A stretch of 64,000 nucleotides of DNA from an uncultured Nitrospiraceae bacterium (GTDB lineage Bacteria > Nitrospirota > Thermodesulfovibrionia > Thermodesulfovibrionales > SM23-35). Made by a program: the position numbers and the translations under genes. Shown here piece by piece: positions 55,719 through 63,985 of this stretch. Each line of letters starts with the position of its first letter. The stretch's first letter is position 1. The notes below the pieces were generated by a model, which worked only from the letters and a program-made list of their open reading frames with translations, was not told where the DNA came from and did no database searches. The stretch spans positions 1,472,001-1,536,000 of the forward strand of contig CAVSHB010000001.1 of NCBI GenBank assembly GCA_963727775.1. Reading direction: 5' to 3'.

Positions 55719-57907
55719 ATAATATGGAGTATAGCCTGAATAGAGTTTCCATGGCAAAATATATCACCGGGTTTTCCGTGAAAATACTGTGTACTCCATG
55801 GTTACAAATAAATAGTGCATCCCGCACAAAATGGTTAAAAAAAGACACAAAATGGTTAACACCTTCGTTTAAGCATCTGATATAATGCTCGAATCGTGTT
55901 TTGCAGCCTACCTTAATCTGAGAGGGGTTTTTTAGTGAAGCCGAAGTTTATTAGAGGGGACATAGTGCGCAAAATTGATGCCAGACTATTATTTCTATCC
56001 TTATTTATCTTTTTTGCTCCTTGCCCAATAGAGGCATCTGATCTCGGTCTTGAAAAAGACTTACAGGGGCGGCTGCAAGAAAGCAGTCTTATAATAGACA
56101 AAGCTTTAGGGAACCTCTCCTCGGGCAACTCCGTAGTAAATGATATAAACGGACTTAAGAAAGTTGCAGACAAAATCAGAAGCTTAGACTTTCTGCTCCA
56201 GGATAAGTTCAAGCAGAGCGAGCAAGACACACAGTCGAGGGGGGCGAAGGCCCTGGAGAGACAAAGAGACATGTCGGATGCTTACCGAGAGGCTTTGCAG
56301 GAATACCTGAGCCTTGTAGACGGTCTTCCCCCTAATGTAGCAGTCTCACAGCCCCAACTGGAAAATGTAGCAGCCTTCCTTAACAAGATCCTTCATAAGA
56401 AGAAAAGACCGCTCCTTGGCAGTCTTCCATACAGGAACCTGAATTATCCCTCCAAAGAACCAAATGCAGACCCTGCAATAAAGCCTGCATACAAAGGCGG
56501 CAACAAAGTTATAAGTCCTGACGATACTAAAGATACGGAAGAAGCCCCGATATCAGCGGAGATAGCGGACCTTGCACAATCATTAAACTGGAACCCGGTA
56601 TCTATATATGAATATGTGAAAAACAACATAGAGACAGAGTGGTACTGGGGGTGCATGAAAGGGGCTGAGGAGACATTAAGGCAGAAATCCGGCAACGACT
56701 GTGACCAAGCGACACTGCTGACTGCTTTGCTGAGGTCTTCCGGTTTTCCATCGAGGTATGTGAGGGGAACAATAGCATTCTTCGCCGGCAAAAATGCGCC
56801 TATCACAAAGGTAAGGAACCTTTTGGGAATCGACGATCCCTGGAAAATAGCAGAATTCTTCCAGAAGGCCGGTATCCCAAATAAGCCGATCATAGCGGGT
56901 GGGACGATATCCAATTTTCAGATAGAGCATATATGGGTGGAAAGCCAGATACCTTATGCGAACTATCGTGGGGCTATGATCGATCAACAGGGCAAGACCT
57001 GGCTCGGACTTGATACCAGTATAAAGGTAAAGGACTACCAGTACAATAATCCGCTGGATATTCTGCAGGAGATGTCTTTCTCAAACATAAGAGATGAATA
57101 TTTGGGTACAATACAGACACGGACGCCTTTGGAATATATAGAATCAAATGTGCAGGCTTATCTGACACAAAACCATCCTGATAAAACATACAGCGATCTA
57201 TTGCAATCAAAGACACTCACCCCTGAGGTCATGAACATCCTTCCGGCGAGCATGCAGTTCGACCAACCGAGTATAACCCATGAATATACCGCGATACCCG
57301 ATGAGCTCAAACATAACATAAAATTCACAGCAACAGACGTAAACAACAATGAATTGTTCAGTGTAATCATTGACACTCTGAACCTCTCGAACCAGCAGAC
57401 AGCCATAAGTTACGAACCTGAGACAGTGGAAGACCAGCAGATTATCGATTCCTATGGAGGGCTGGACAACACGCCCGCTTACTTAGTGAGACTGAGACCT
57501 GTATTAAAGGTAAACGAAGAGATGGTGGTTGCAGGTAAATCCGGATTGCCGATGGGCACAGATTACAACCTCACCATCGAGCTCATCTCGCCGGGTGGAG
57601 ATGAAAAGATAACAACCGCCCATATAATAGGGAATGTCTCAGCGATAGCGATAGCTGCTCAAAAAGTCATAAAACCGGAACAAATCCCTATGGAAGAAAA
57701 AGACGCAGAGAGGCTTCTGTATGAAGAGGCAAGCAACCATATCGATCGCTGGAACCAGGCTGAGGAAGAACTTGCATCACTCATCCATCTTTCTTTCACG
57801 AGACCGGTCCCAACCGTTGTAACTGATACTGATTAAGGCCCCCCTGAACCATACCCGAATCAGGTATGATTCAGGAACCGAAATCATTTACCAAAAGGAG
57901 GCCTCAA

Positions 57908-58954
57908 ATGAGATTTTACATCAAGCAGCACAAATTTTACTGCGGTATCGATCTTCACGCAAGGACTATGTACCTTTGCATCCTCAACCAGGAAGGAAAG
58001 ATCGTCCTGCATAGGGACATCAAGACAGACCCCGACATCTTTCTCAAGACGATCGCGCCATATCGTGAGGACATCGTAGTTGCCGTTGAGTGCATCTTCA
58101 CCTGGTACTGGCTCGCCGATCTCTGCTGTAAAGAGAATATTTCCTTCGTCCTTGGCCATGCTCTCTATATGAAAGCCATCCATGGCGGCAAAGCCAAGAA
58201 CGACAAAATAGACGCATATAAGATAGCAGCCCTGCTTCGGGGCGGCATGATGCCCATGGCCTATGTTTATCCTTCCGATATGCGCTCCACCAGAGATCTG
58301 CTCAGGCGGCGCACTCACCTCGCAAGAAAAAGGGCTGAACTCATTGCCCATATCCAAAACACCAATCACCAGTATAACTTCGCCGATATGGGAAGGATCG
58401 CAAGGAAATGCGACAGAATCAAAGTAGGCGTTGCCGACCGCTTCACCGATCCCAGCGTACAAAAAAGCATAGAGCTCGATATCACCCTTATCGAGCATTA
58501 CGATAAACTCCTAAACCATCTCGAACATGAACTCTCTCTTATTGCGAAAGTGCATGATGCCGATTCCTATTTCCGCCTCCGCTCTATTCCAGGCGTCGGA
58601 AGGATCCTCGGCCTCACCATCCTCTATGAGATACATGATATCAACCGCTTCCCTCGCGTACAGGATTTTGTCTCATACTGCAGACTGGTGAAATCCGCCA
58701 AGGAGTCGGCTGGGAAAATAATCGGGGCATCCGGCAAGAAGATCGGCAATGCCCATCTGAAATGGGCCTTTTCCGAAGTTGCTGTGCTTTTCCTCAGGAG
58801 AAACCCAGAAGCCGTAAAATACCGCGCAAAGCTGGAGCGAAAGCACGGCAAGGCAAAGTCTCTGACCATCCTTGCTCATAAGCTTGCAAGGGCTGTCTAT
58901 AATATCCTCAAGAAAAAGGAGGTGTTTAATCCTAAAGTATTCTTTGCGAAATAA
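57908..58954 (+). CDS. IS110-family DEDD recombinase/transposase
   Basis: GIDLH, VEC, KNDKID, SIPGVG, ESAGK, GNAHLKWAF, LAHKLAR; RBS AAGGAGG. Confidence 0.95.
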   Translation: MRFYIKQHKFYCGIDLHARTMYLCILNQEGKIVLHRDIKTDPDIFLKTIAPYREDIVVAVECIFTWYWLADLCCKENISFVLGHALYMKAIHGGKAKNDKIDAYKIAALLRGGMMPMAYVYPSDMRSTRDLLRRRTHLARKRAELIAHIQNTNHQYNFADMGRIARKCDRIKVGVADRFTDPSVQKSIELDITLIEHYDKLLNHLEHELSLIAKVHDADSYFRLRSIPGVGRILGLTILYEIHDINRFPRVQDFVSYCRLVKSAKESAGKIIGASGKKIGNAHLKWAFSEVAVLFLRRNPEAVKYRAKLERKHGKAKSLTILAHKLARAVYNILKKKEVFNPKVFFAK

Positions 58955-58956
58955 AG

Positions 58957-59220
58957 CTGGGACCGGGTGAGCCTGTTCGTCTAACTGGCGCCATTAGGGT
59001 GAAGTCCGATAGATGCTCGTAAACATCATATGTTTGCAGCTTCGACTGCCCTTCGATCATCCTGGAATATTATGCCCGGCGCAAATACGCTTTGATTAGG
59101 ACATCCGGTCCCTCATAACATATAAAGATTGTTAAGGTTCTGTCCCTTACCCGAGCCTGATACTAACTGGATGAGGCCACTGACCTGAACCAGACCTTTG
59201 AATAGGACGGTACAAGGGTA
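58957..59220 (+). ncRNA. Putative bridge/seek RNA of the IS1111-type element
   Basis: Two stem-closed modules, each GAGCC-[variable]-TAACTGG...CTTTGAnTAGGAC; variable parts match target (CTGTT) and donor (TGATACT). Confidence 0.65.
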
Positions 59221-59231
59221 CTAAATTGTTT

Positions 59232-60314
59232 CTAGTGTAGTGTCCCACTAACGGCTTTACAATGAACGACCTTTTCCAAGATGGCATCGACCTTTTTCGT
59301 CCAGACAAACGGCTTGGGACTCTCGTTGTTGATCTGGATGAAGTCTTCTATTGCAGCAACAAGTTCCGAAACACTGCGAAAAACTCCACAGCGAATGCGT
59401 TTCCGTGTGATCTCTCCGAACCATCTCTCCACCAGATTCAACCATGAGGAACTGGTCGGCGTGAAATGAAGGTGAAATCGGGGATGTTTTTTCAGCCATG
59501 CTTTAACCTTGGGATGGTTGTGCGTACCATAATTATCCAGAATCATATGGACGCCCAATTCCGAGGGTACGGTGGCGTCGATCTGTCGCAGGAATTTCCG
59601 AAATTCGATGTTGCGATGCCTCGGATAACAGGAGCCAATAACTTTTCCCTCCAGCACATTCAACGCCGCGAACAGACACGTAGTGCCATTGCGCTTATAG
59701 TCATGGGTCATGGTTCGGCAGCGCCCTTTCTTCATCGGCAAGCCGGGTTGTGTCCGATCCAACGCTTGAACTTGGCTCTTCTCGTCAACACACAGCACCA
59801 CCGCCTTGTCCGGCGGATTCAAGTACACTCCCACCACGTCCGTCAGTTTTTCAACAAACCGCTTGTCCTTGGATAACTTGAATGTCTCAACGCGATGAGG
59901 CTGAAGACCGTGCGCGTCCCATATACGTTGCACCGTGGACTTGCCGACTCCCTGAGCCCTTGCCATCGAACGCACCGACCACTGCGTGGCATCGCGAGGT
60001 GTCGTGTGGAGAGTCGCTTCGACAATGGCCTTCACCCGGTCCGGCGGAAGAGCCTGTGGACTCGGGCCATGGGGTGCGTCCTCGGCCAATCCCATCGGTC
60101 CATGCTCTTCGAAACGTTTGCGCCATTGGATTACTGTCGGGCGGGAGGTGGACAGTTGGGCCGCGATAGCGTTGTTCGACAAGCCATCCGCCGCCAAAAG
60201 ACAAATACTCGCTCGCAGTACTGCTCGCTGAGGGCTGGTCTTAGCCCGTTTCCAAGCTTCCAATGTCCTGCGCTGCTCTTTTGTCATCTCCAGAACTTCT
60301 GCTTTTTCCCACAT
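59232..60314 (-). CDS. IS630 transposase
   Basis: VDEKSQVQAL, THDYKRNGT, ILDNYGTH, SSWLNLVERWF; stop codon uses the target TAG. Confidence 0.95.
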   Translation of the reverse strand: MWEKAEVLEMTKEQRRTLEAWKRAKTSPQRAVLRASICLLAADGLSNNAIAAQLSTSRPTVIQWRKRFEEHGPMGLAEDAPHGPSPQALPPDRVKAIVEATLHTTPRDATQWSVRSMARAQGVGKSTVQRIWDAHGLQPHRVETFKLSKDKRFVEKLTDVVGVYLNPPDKAVVLCVDEKSQVQALDRTQPGLPMKKGRCRTMTHDYKRNGTTCLFAALNVLEGKVIGSCYPRHRNIEFRKFLRQIDATVPSELGVHMILDNYGTHNHPKVKAWLKKHPRFHLHFTPTSSSWLNLVERWFGEITRKRIRCGVFRSVSELVAAIEDFIQINNESPKPFVWTKKVDAILEKVVHCKAVSGTLH

Positions 60315-60371
60315 GCCATATAGCTTACCATGACAACTAATCATTGTCCAGCTTTTAGTGGGACAGTACAC
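59235..60371 (-). mobile_element. IS630-family element (1137 bp)
   Basis: IR GTGTA(G/C)TGTCCCACTAA at both ends; TA duplication at 59233-34 and 60372-73. Confidence 0.95.
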
Positions 60372-61018
60372 TAGGTCGTGGAGAACAAGGGCAATTGCTC
60401 TCTCCACTGTCGCCGGGGATAGAGATTGTGAAAACAGTTCTCTTTCTCATGGCTATTGAACCTCGATAAGTGTTTGGTGCAGACATTGATCTAACGCCGC
60501 ATTTGAAACCAAGTCAGAGCTGGCGATGGTCTTTTAAAAAAAAGAAATAGAATTTTATTTTATTTCCGATCAGGATCGTTTTTTCTCTTGACAGGGCAGG
60601 GCCTTATAAGTGTTGGAGGAGTGATAGATGTCACCTATGTTCTTGATACCCCGCATGGATACGAATGGAAAGGCGTCTTTGCAGACGCAAATCTGAGAGC
60701 GATGGAAGTAACCCCCTCTCACTCCCCCTTACCCCAAGGTGGAGAAGGCGATAGACAAAAGACATTCATGCAGCTTTCTGCATTGCAGGGGTCTATCCTT
60801 GAGAACAGGATATTTGAGGACGATTTTCAGGTGGAGTCGATCTCGACGGCAAAGCTATTTGAAATTGTAAACACTAATCTGCCTCCGACCCCAATTATAA
60901 CAATAGACAAAACCAACGTAGATAGTATGCTTCCAAGCCTTCCTTTCGATGAACAGATAAAAACGGACATTACAAATGCTGTAAACCAAAATCTAAACGT
61001 AAAGATTCCGCAATCGGA

Positions 61019-61170
61019 TGTAAATAAACGAGCGCCGCACCATGCGCGTCGCTCGTTACGACACCACAGGGCGTTTACCCTGTGGGTCGGCAAGGGTCTT
61101 CGCTTCGCTCCGATGCCCTGCACCCCGACGACGCAAGGTTCCCGTGGCAGAGACCACGGGGTGTTTTAAT
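61019..61170. mobile_element. ~152-bp GC-rich multi-hairpin non-autonomous insertion
   Basis: Interrupts KIPQS|..|INYQDW and shifts the frame; stems at 61027-57, 61064-85, 61086-129 and 61141-60; exact ends ambiguous. Confidence 0.65.
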
Positions 61171-63387
61171 AATTAATTATCAGGACTGGACAGGGCTTGG
61201 CTATATTACGGAAAACCCATTGACTAGCGAAGCGGGGTACATGCTTTCCGGCATGATAGCGGGCGGCATGACGGCGAAGAACAAGCAATTGTGGATAAAT
61301 CAGGATTTGGCGAATACATTGAGCCTGCCGAATACAAAGCAAACAAATATGGATGTTAACGCAGTCGTAAGGGTTGTCAGATTGGACAAAGCAAATACGG
61401 ACTACCAGGCGGGTATAGTAGGCAAAGATCTTACAACTCCCTTTCAAGTAATTGCCCTGGACGCTAATGACAGTCCGGTTCAAGGTGTCAATATAACCTT
61501 TAAGGTACTTGCGGGTGGGGGGCAAGTAAAAGGTATAAAGCCGCTCACAGCAAAAGACACCCAGGTAACGGTAATCACCGGGGCAGACGGTATAGCCTGG
61601 GCGCTGCTTACTCTGGGGCAGAAGACGTCGGTCTCTCCGTACTACCGTCAGATGACCGATTCTAAAGGTGTAATATATTGGGAACTTGTAGGTCAGAATT
61701 TTGTTTCGGTATATGCAACAACATAAAAGAATACTATCTCTACCGACAAACCTTTTGAGGCCTATGGAAGCCCGGGAGAGGCAACAACCATTGTCAAAGT
61801 GAACGGAGACTCAATTTCCGGGTATCCCAATGTTTTCTCGGGAACATTGTGGGTGAAGATAACCGACCAATATGAAAATCCGATCTCAAACAAGAAAGTC
61901 TATTTCACTATATTGCCCCAGACCTTTTTATCGGTGCCCCCAGTCGGCGAAACAAGAAATGCAAAGATATTCAAGGCGTTGAACGACTGCCCGATGATAG
62001 CCACACTTGATTGTCCTAATGCTTTACCCAATGACACAGACCCGCGTAATCCTATAGAAACCACTACGACTTATTATGGAGTTATGACCTACGCAATTCT
62101 TGGAAATACAACCGACACCAAATATGCGTTTAAAGTGAGTGCAAAGAAAGACTTCTTCAACGATAAAGGTGAAAGGGTAGATACTACTGCCGATATAACC
62201 GATGTAAAACTTGCTTCCGGATCTGCTTCTCCTGCCGAATTCGACCATTATATAGGGCATGCAGACGTCACTGATTTCCTTAAGCTTTTTTACGTATCCC
62301 GTATTAACGAACAAGGACAAATAATTGACGCGGGCGGAACAGAACAATTCTTTCCGTTTACGGTAGAGATGTGGTATATGAAGGAAAGAGAAAACACCAC
62401 TATATTCGATTCTACCCCTGTATATGACGGTACAGCAAAATTTTATGTATACCAAGACCAGGGAACCGGTACCTTTTGGCAACAATCTGTAACTAACCTT
62501 GGATGGAAGAAGAACAACAAATATATGACTTCTTACAAACTCGGAACGGAACCGGAACAGAACATTTTATATGCAACCGGGAATGCAACGATAGATGGGA
62601 AAGACCTGTATGCCAGGAGCGATAATGTTCCTATATGGACGGTAACGGCCACTGCAGACAATGCCGCTGTAATAATAAACAGTGACGGTTATCCATCCCT
62701 TGACACGGTAATAGGATATACAATAATGCCAGACGAATATAACCCTGCAACAATTGAAGTCTTCTTTTACGAAAATAACCAATATATGGGGTTAATACCT
62801 GGAAACAGGGACGAGGTGATAGTGAGTCAGGGCTTTGCAAAAAATCGACCCTGCAAAATCATATTCCTTTGAGGTAGTGCTAAACAGAGGTACCGACATG
62901 GAGATACGGAGTCATAGAGTGCCTATGATTGCAAGTAATTCAAGAGTAAAGCTTTGTAGGAGGGATTTAATAGGTGTTCCATATTGGCTTGTCGAGAGGT
63001 TTATTTCACAGGAGGATTATAATCAGCTTTACCATAATTTTGTTTGGATTGATGGGCATACATTTGGGTTCACCACGGGGGATAAAACGTATACTGAAAG
63101 GTGCATAGTTGAAGGTCCCGGTAAGGTTGAGGAAGATTTAACGGAGGATATTTGGGCAGCAGCTTCCGGTTCCATGCATGGAAGTTGTCAGGATATTTCA
63201 TGCAATAATCCTGCCCGGCTTTTAGAAGAAGCTATAGGACAGGCTAATTTTACACGGTATTATTATTGTTTATCATACGACCCTCTCAATAACGAAAGCG
63301 GCGGGATAAATTGCCAGGAGTGGGCGACTATGATGCTTAGAACATATTGCTATTGAAAGGAATCGACAAAAGGAGTCATGGAAACTA

Positions 63388-63985
63388 ATGGGTAAAATTT
63401 TTATTGGCTTATTAATCGTTATATGCATATTGTCCTTTGCTTTATTTTTACATTTCAATGAAATGCTGGACATCTAAAAAAAAAATAGTTTTGAAAGAAG
63501 GCGTTTTCAAGGTGATTAATGAGAAAAATGAGTTTGAGTTTGATAAGCTGAAAAACAAACCTTTTGATGTAATCGTGAGATTTTATAAGCAAGAAGGCAT
63601 TAATTACGTAGGTTTATTTTCAGGTAAAGTTGATTATGCTATTCAGACAGAATTAAAGAACCATAAAAATAGAGTTATTAAGCGGAATACTATAGAGCCT
63701 GGTAATTTTATGCCAAAAGGTTTTACAAATGAATATTTTGAATGGACATTGATGCGATTCGATGCAAATCAGTGGGAGAAATACAAAGTCAAGATTATTT
63801 TCGATAGCGGGTTTAATGATTTTGATACTATGAAAAAAGAAATCTACCTGGAGCAACATTATGACCGCCCCTCTGCTGTATGGTGGTTCGCACTTCGTCC
63901 CTTCTTCTTAATAATCTTTATTATTACATTTATCCCAATATTGATAATGGGCTTGATCTCTTGGCGACGGAAAAAAGAAAAATGA
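63388..63985 (+). CDS. Two-TM membrane protein, candidate immunity protein (5' frameshift)
   Basis: AT-rich, directly after the toxin-like domain; N-terminal TM MGKIFIGLLIVICILS joins the 63437 frame with one T fewer at 63436-38; C-terminal TM plus basic tail. Confidence 0.55.

Follow-up and report, generated by a model that had tools for sequence, protein, structure and literature searches.

The 64,000-nucleotide (nt) stretch of DNA analysed here, referred to as the window, comes from an uncultured Nitrospiraceae bacterium (assembly GCA_963727775.1, contig CAVSHB010000001.1, positions 1,472,001 to 1,536,000 of the forward strand). It carries, from the TG at 57824 to the TG at 60611-60612, an insertion sequence (IS) that interrupts a gene for a transglutaminase-like domain protein. 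The interpretation favoured here, held with considerable confidence, is that of an IS1111-type element of the IS110 family guided by a bridge RNA with three loops, the third of which is split in the window copy. The element would move by RNA-guided recombination at a TG core. Loop 1, as its covariation with the insertion sites indicates, would base-pair with the two target strands; the target is the R'' box of integron attC sites, taken on the strand opposite to the cassette genes. Loop 3 would pair with the right end, with which it covaries, and probably, on weaker evidence, with the left end. The dinucleotides that follow the core may serve as handshake guides, as they do in IS621. Loop 2 duplicates the target loop; its most likely role is to bind a recombinase dimer and to read near-core bases only, with no part in the choice of new sites.

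The recombinase and the ends of the element

The element encodes a DEDD recombinase of 348 residues (57908..58954; features lie on the plus strand of the window unless stated otherwise), whose start was set by the ribosome-binding site and by the starts of homologs. The protein matches NF033542 with 201 bits (cut-off 140), PF01548 and PF02371 are above their cut-offs too, and motifs together with an alignment to IS621 place the catalytic residues at D15, E61, D99, D102 and S267. Hence the RuvC-type DEDD domain and the C-terminal domain with catalytic serine that define the IS110 family are both present. Excision of positions 57826-60612 in silico rejoins the host reading frame (815 residues against 633), and the genome that contains the window (G000) holds two further copies with the same ends, 99.9% identical to the window copy; one of them occupies C4:107333-108982. 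A preliminary description of this locus had proposed an IS110/IS1111-type recombinase and had reconstructed the target and its TG core; the profile match, the restored frame and the additional copies bear out these proposals. The core, whose left copy is at 57824..57825, is common to both junctions in all three genomic copies, and insertion is conservative, with TG at both junctions and no longer duplication, as in the IS110 family. TG-TT is the sequence at each of the four insertion points in G000.

Inward of the left-end donor arm (57826..57833) lies a perfect subterminal inverted repeat of 8 base pairs (bp) (57834..57841), within the 7-17 bp range of the IS1111 group. It pairs with 60599-60606, and the right end (60599..60612) comprises this right repeat, the donor arm TAAG and the right copy of the TG core. 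Among relatives, the subterminal repeat has 8-12 matches of 12 in 85/85 elements, their right ends having been called using the same repeat. The non-coding regions measure 84 nt to the left of the recombinase gene and about 520 nt to its right, that is, the long downstream region typical of IS1111-type elements. Joining of the ends produces TTGACA-18-GATACT, exact in 42 of the 85 elements having both ends. Its presumed -35 half is at 60588..60593 and its predicted -10 half, conserved across elements, at 57825-57830, where it shares the first bases of the left-end donor arm. The circle junction would thereby create a promoter reading through the recombinase gene into the RNA described below. 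A promoter search of the intact copy gave a single promoter-like match, on the minus strand, which is below chance (1 against 2.6 expected).

Sequence set and pair tests

The comparison started from 160 related loci, the best 80 from each of two scans, to which 3 plasmid loci and 35 loci from whole-genome searches were added; 10 loci (duplicates or too distant) and 4 exact repeats were dropped, giving 188 elements. Three doubtful right-end calls (L068, L100 and L134) were excluded later, and for a copy with a duplicated end the outer flank was used. The window copy was kept outside the set because its RNA is split, and the two intact G000 copies were included. Motifs were placed by consensus patterns, so that n differs between tests. 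In the nearest-relative test, pairs of elements differing in the guide were taken, and the own target or end was compared with the swapped one.

A predicted guide RNA of three modules

Downstream of the recombinase gene, comparison of the relatives establishes three modules, predicted to belong to one RNA. Module 1 (58959..59112) is closed by GGGACCGG/CCGGTCCC and is the target-binding loop; module 2 (59144..59218) is closed by CCCTT/AAGGG and is a second loop of the target type. Module 3 is interrupted in the window by a nested element of the IS630 family. Its 5' part (59219..59234) contains a putative left-end-reading strand (59224-59232), and its inner stem and 3' part (60372..60519) extend up to a conserved 3' motif (60505-60519). 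All six loop strands were located in 113 of the 149 elements with a full-length right end, over 54-100% protein identity, and the layout therefore departs from the two loops of bridge RNAs and seekRNAs. Those misses of the first set that were inspected were mostly truncated, interrupted or mis-parsed; L101 and L105 differ after module 1, where unrelated sequence stands in place of modules 2-3. The same replacement is seen in L052 and L060. L052, L060 and L105 keep a right end further on, and these cases may represent nested insertions or replaced ends.

Two-sided changes were found at 15/16 predicted pairs of module 1 (41 sequences), including its closing stem, and at 8/10 pairs of module 2 (50 sequences), where none of 500 shuffles reached the score and slid controls were far lower. 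The inner stem of module 3 is also compensated (30 sequences). Modules 1 and 2 are built on one common scaffold, and a long-range stem via the 3' motif can close modules 2 and 3 into a single domain. The intact RNA would have about 430 nt, compared with 148-177 nt for the characterised ones. A scan of Rfam gave no match at E up to 1, and the fold of the single sequence 58955-59231 was not significant (z -1.5), the structure being visible in alignments only. Three metatranscriptome runs of one study contain relatives (5-9% of words), and one contig of 305 nt covers modules 1-2, although such contigs may hold DNA and show no RNA ends.

Module 1 as target loop

The 5' guide strand of module 1 (58979..58985) is complementary to the core G and the right target (GTTAGRC in attC), and the 3' guide strand (59088..59096) contains the left target and TG followed by the handshake dinucleotide AT. 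The 5' strand matches its own right flank at 4.50 against 3.96 of 6 positions (n=84), a value as high being obtained in none of 3000 shuffles. For the 3' strand, matches to its own left flank and core were 2.86 against 1.98 of 5 (n=126), in a register that was the best of 110 (z 9.4). Both registers top all scanned offsets. The pair test favoured the own over the swapped target by 17:4 for the 5' strand and by 41:9 for the 3' strand. Covariation of both strands with the insertion sites thus identifies module 1 as the predicted target loop, in which the two strands would pair with opposite target strands and overlap at the core. The top-strand guide comes first, which is the IS1111 order.

A clade of six members (L034, L037, L041, L127, L134 and L181) has been naturally retargeted from attC to TG|TA sites. 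In this TA clade, the target +2 position, loop 1, loop 2 and the loop 3 handshake have all changed from T to A, and such coordinated changes in all three modules amount to a natural reprogramming test. Within it, the loop 1 guides of L037 and L181, both from one genome, and of L127 agree at 6/6 with the respective right flanks, which differ.

Module 3 as donor loop and the putative handshake dinucleotides

The 3' guide strand of module 3 (60466..60474) consists of ATAAGTG, identical to the right end, and the handshake TT. Its variable base agrees with the right end in 73/77 elements, follows it in nearest-relative pairs by 17:0 and has changed 10 times on the tree, all of which indicates that module 3 is the donor loop and that this strand reads the right end. 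The 5' strand probably pairs with the left end, as suggested by the strongest of all position pairs falling in the predicted register (z 7.4). Among the left-end positions, 57831 shows the strongest covariation with module 3. It is G in the window copy and C in the two other copies of the genome; in this one case, G would permit a wobble where C mismatches.

The dinucleotide AT of loop 1 equals the donor AT in 126/131 elements. The handshake of loop 3 tracks the target +1/+2 positions (n=77), changing from TT to TA where the target does, with variation that comes from one clade. Because of this one retargeted clade and of the conservation elsewhere, the dinucleotides after the core are taken to act as handshake guides, by analogy with those of IS621.

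The second target-type loop

Module 2 keeps the whole target-loop layout, core TG included. Its 5' guide-like strand (59161..59167) is in the same register as that of module 1, and its 3' guide-like strand and handshake-like dinucleotide occupy 59194..59202, the first handshake base being A in 110/117 elements. The scaffold covaries and the guide columns are variable, without predicting the insertion site: the nearest-relative pairs gave 9:10 for the 5' strand and 21:11 for the 3' strand (p=0.055). In the TA clade, the +2 base of module 2 switched along with the target and the other two loops. Several functions were considered for module 2 and found unsupported, namely reading of the left end, the right end or any flank offset, reading of the partner arm of attC (n=32, p=0.75 and 0.72), and reading of a fixed home site in G000, where no exact match to the loop 2 target exists.

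Most likely, module 2 would bind recombinase and read near-core bases at a step other than the choice of site. A more specific proposal, tentative and given somewhat less than an even chance, is that the middle loop functions as a target loop in its own right. Loop 1 would pick new attC sites, and loop 2 would read the near-core bases of whatever flank is occupied, its partner being the donor loop during copy-out or loop 1 during direct transfer. Excision complexes are reported to bind junction DNA across loops (PMC13626964), and in CazIS110-1 direct transfer is reported to be supported by a target loop that is free (bioRxiv 10.1101/2025.10.25.684509). If the proposal were true, one RNA would use separate loops to direct insertion and exit and could be loaded with three recombinase dimers.

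The main rival gives module 2 a structural role or treats it as a relic. Module 2 would be an arm of a multi-loop donor domain formed by modules 2 and 3 and would read no DNA. Its guide-like strands would be left over from a duplication, or they would pair within the RNA with the module 3 3' strand, and the RNA would function as an ordinary two-loop bridge RNA. The possibility of closing both modules by one long-range stem agrees with this, as do the lack of independent target covariation and the multi-loop donor regions that Durrant et al. describe in IS1111 RNAs. Moreover, the 5' strand of module 2 is complementary at 4/5 positions to the 3' strand of module 3, and this is kept in the TA clade and in L159. 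However, the internal pairing is broken in L049, L095, L107 and L111, and a mere arm accounts poorly for the retained target-loop layout with its core TG and its nearly constant first handshake base, or for the leaning of the 3' strand to the left target in the pair test. An exclusively structural or relic role is regarded as rather unlikely.

Dual targeting, in which module 2 would be an alternative targeting loop for a second class of sites, is clearly improbable. The guide columns of loops 1 and 2 do show similar numbers of changes on the tree, the TA clade did see loop 2 switch along with the target, and the right flank of L087 matches loop 2 at 6/6 and loop 1 at 4. Nevertheless, sites fit loop 1 better in 57/73 cases and loop 2 in 8, with 8 ties, and in the columns where the guides differ the sites agree with loop 1 188 times, with loop 2 51 times and with neither 102 times. 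Taking the better of both loops brings no gain over shuffled loop 2 (p=0.80, n=56), nor does it at the 9 sites poorly fitted by loop 1. All four copies in genome G008 fit loop 1; the loop 2 target has no exact match in G000, and loop 2 does not read the other attC arm, as stated above. Genomes with multiple copies were few (6/57, 4/68 and 6/401 of the genomes matched), which left few sets for a test of two site classes.

The preliminary description had read the region as a two-loop guide RNA, with CTGTT in module 1 guiding to the target and TGATACT in module 2 guiding to the donor. A guide RNA at the right end with loops that follow the target and the donor stands, together with the closing stems and shared motifs of modules 1 and 2, which are present and compensated; the number of loops does not. 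Both short segments exist, CTGTT at 58973-58977 and TGATACT at 59158-59164, where it overlaps the 5' strand of module 2. Their role as guides is highly improbable: they match in the window element, and the four G000 insertion points read TG-TT, but in homologs TGTT occurs in the module 1 segment of 7/77 elements with TT targets and TGATACT in module 2 of 12/93 elements with a TGATACT left end, without covariation, the segments overlap a compensated stem, and a core-first guide is the reverse of the IS621 geometry. Lack of covariation with the sites is the outcome that the preliminary description had itself named as refuting its reading; it applies to both segments, while other segments of the modules do covary. 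The 12 elements with TGATACT in module 2 are all at least 82% identical to the window transposase. The module 2 segment does not covary with the left end (4.29 own against 4.33 other, p=0.95, n=114; 1:3 in pairs), and the T of the supposed core in TGATACT is a stem base (column 20, with 18 two-sided changes). The donor guide sits in the third module, beyond the nested IS630-family element, and both this module and the insertion splitting it (59235-60371) had been missed. The conserved motifs had been regarded as mere scaffold, yet the target guides adjoin them. Antisense transcription, considered as an explanation for core-first guides, was dispensable once the other guides had been located. 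Short guide-like matches from one sequence can thus mislead even where the overall call is correct, a lesson for annotation.

A number of points weigh against the interpretation proposed here. The RNA is predicted from sequence comparison alone. Greedy nearest pairs lower relatedness but leave some of it, and an earlier, less sensitive pairing of the first data set, in which a guide difference was not required, gave only 7:3 for the 5' strand of loop 1, and 19:5 for its 3' strand. The 5' strand of module 3 follows the left end in nearest-relative pairs by 5:2 (p=0.23), mismatches it at +2 in 115/115 elements, and may pair with the RNA motif GAAAY instead. The tie between loop 2 and the target stems from one clade and a single event, and in the four related soil elements L049, L095, L107 and L111 the three +2 positions do not vary in step with one another. 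Finally, the target of the window copy fits loop 1 poorly (5.0 of 11).

Integron attC sites as targets

Comparison of the insertion sites shows that the family inserts, as far as flanking sequences can tell, at TG|TT of integron attC sites (R'' box), on the strand opposite to the cassette genes. The consensus site of the family lines up with the published targets of ISKpn4 and ISPa25; these two elements insert 5 nt further left than the TG core. Hairpins with z below -2 occur in 31/60 left flanks and in 9/60 right flanks, and a gene on the opposite strand ends at the insertion site in 18/38 cases compared with 7/127 controls. Further attC-like sites were found 30 times on the same strand, never on the opposite strand and once in shuffles, the pattern of cassette arrays. 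A hairpin-closure test was weak (31/58 against 43/183) and is backed by the flank hairpins, the gene ends and the same-strand sites. The sequence TTRRRY serves as the strict consensus of the right flank, and 33/88 right flanks fit it.

The two intact G000 copies lie in attC sites of this kind, with profile scores of 20 and 17. The window target scores -3.4, with only 3/81 sites lower, and its hairpin z is +1.5. Because of this low profile score and of the poor fit to loop 1, the window copy is classed as an off-target insertion in a gene, its target not being an attC site. No intact integron integrase above the cut-off was found in G000; the best match (C1:927995-928957, plus strand) is below the cut-off, lacks its middle and is split by an open reading frame that is presumably four-helix-bundle-like. 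Members of the family also occur on Vibrio and Pseudoalteromonas plasmids (L161 2501-4000 and L162 2501-3800). In L161 the three modules are complete and the element lies within a repeat that resembles the Vibrio attC, whereas L162 is interrupted in module 3, next to an IS3.

The window copy and its surroundings

The 5' part of the interrupted host gene (55935..57825) encodes the transglutaminase-like domain (PF01841), and removal of the element restores its frame into the 3' continuation (60613..61169). The nested IS630-family element (59235..60371, minus strand; NF033545, 273 bits) is flanked by a TA duplication and sits exactly between the 5' loop strand and the inner stem of module 3, an arrangement restricted to the window copy. 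This IS630-family element has four copies in G000 and is missing from the two other IS110 copies. Since the insertion has split loop 3, a working donor loop is improbable in the window copy, which probably could not make one. Its ends are intact, and it could be mobilised in trans by the two intact copies.

In one of the other copies (G000:C4:11448-13342, minus strand) 245 bp of the right end are duplicated in tandem. The duplication begins at the internal TG-TT of the module 3 5' strand, a few bases from the site of IS630 insertion in the window; it looks like a self-insertion followed by collapse, or it is an assembly artefact. A GC-rich repeat, about 165 bp long, lies at 61014-61178, inside the same host gene and at its frame change. 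It gave 25 matches in G000, one copy being nearly identical and about 20 more distant, and is probably a miniature mobile element. The interrupted gene opens a long run of surface-protein-like sequence with the transglutaminase-like domain, a weak Ig-like match and further frames, followed by two small genes (55935-63985).

Relation to known systems

Assignment of the element to the ISGsu4/ISShfr7/ISMahy12 clade of IS1111-type insertion sequences, taken jointly with the bridge-RNA mechanism, is judged quite probable. The nearest named elements of the window recombinase are ISGsu4, ISGsu5, ISShfr7, ISShwo5 and ISMahy12 (supplements of PMC11187229 and PMC11208160); the first four of these form one cluster in Durrant's Supplementary Table 1 (PMC11208160), with ISGsu4 filed as IS110 and ISShfr7 and ISShwo5 as IS1111. 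Counted by eye, 48 of the first 73 residues of ISGsu4 are identical to the window recombinase, and in the published identity matrix ISGsu4 shows 15-23% identity to the first 160 entries. In the sources examined the clade is compared by transposase only, no RNA or target being described for it. In a distant relative (L163 2200-2500, 32% identity), labelled as ISGsu4 family, the downstream region is constructed differently, although the layout AAG-CC ... CTGG ... GATTGG is similar.

By its organisation, the element would work like an IS1111 seekRNA element, as a member of the IS110 family outside the IS1111-attC group. With ISEc11, ISPa11 and ISKpn4 (PMC11187229) it shares a non-coding region 3' of the transposase gene, subterminal repeats, a predicted junction promoter and a top-strand guide placed 5' of the bottom-strand guide. 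The long RNAs of these elements measure 148-172 nt, whereas the RNA predicted for the window family has about 430 nt and a duplicated target-type loop. IS621 and ISCro4 (PMC11208160, PMC11208158) have in common with the window family the guides for two strands overlapping at a 2-nt core, DEDD and serine catalysis, and handshake dinucleotides. In IS621 as in the window family, the target-loop handshake AU stands against the donor AT, the window element being read on the other strand. IS621 and ISCro4 differ in having the RNA in the left end, a CT core, two loops and 177 nt, and their protein similarity to the window recombinase is confined to the C-terminal domain (E 5e-5). In the direct-transfer pathway of CazIS110-1 (bioRxiv 10.1101/2025.10.25.684509) an extra target loop also exists beside the full bridge RNA. 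That extra loop repeats the same loop in truncated form, whereas the window family has a second, diverged target-type loop in cis.

No bridge RNA with three loops or two target loops was found in the examined portions of the bridge RNA and seekRNA literature (including PMC11208160, PMC11187229, PMC11208158, PMC11616780, PMC12288879, PMC13604230 and bioRxiv 2025.05.14.653916), whose predicted structures in figures and supplements could include one. The characterised RNAs described there have one target and one donor loop each. A widespread clade that keeps this loop down to 54% protein identity offers the opportunity to test whether insertion, excision and the proposed direct transfer use different pairs of loops.

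Targeting of integrons brings the family close to two other groups of elements. Group IIC-attC introns have the site TTGT/T, nearly the same bond as that used by the window family. These unrelated retroelements also insert into the bottom strand of attC (PMC3001079). The elements of the IS1111-attC group (ISKpn4, ISPst6, ISPa21 and ISPa25) are directed to the same attC region, antisense to the cassettes, and insert 5 nt further left than the TG core of the window family. ISGsu4, through which the window protein was compared, shares no more than about 17% identity with ISKpn4, ISPst6 and ISPa21 and belongs to a separate cluster; attC targeting therefore looks convergent between the two groups. 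The family described here would provide a second, apparently independent route of the IS110 family to integron attC sites, at a different bond.

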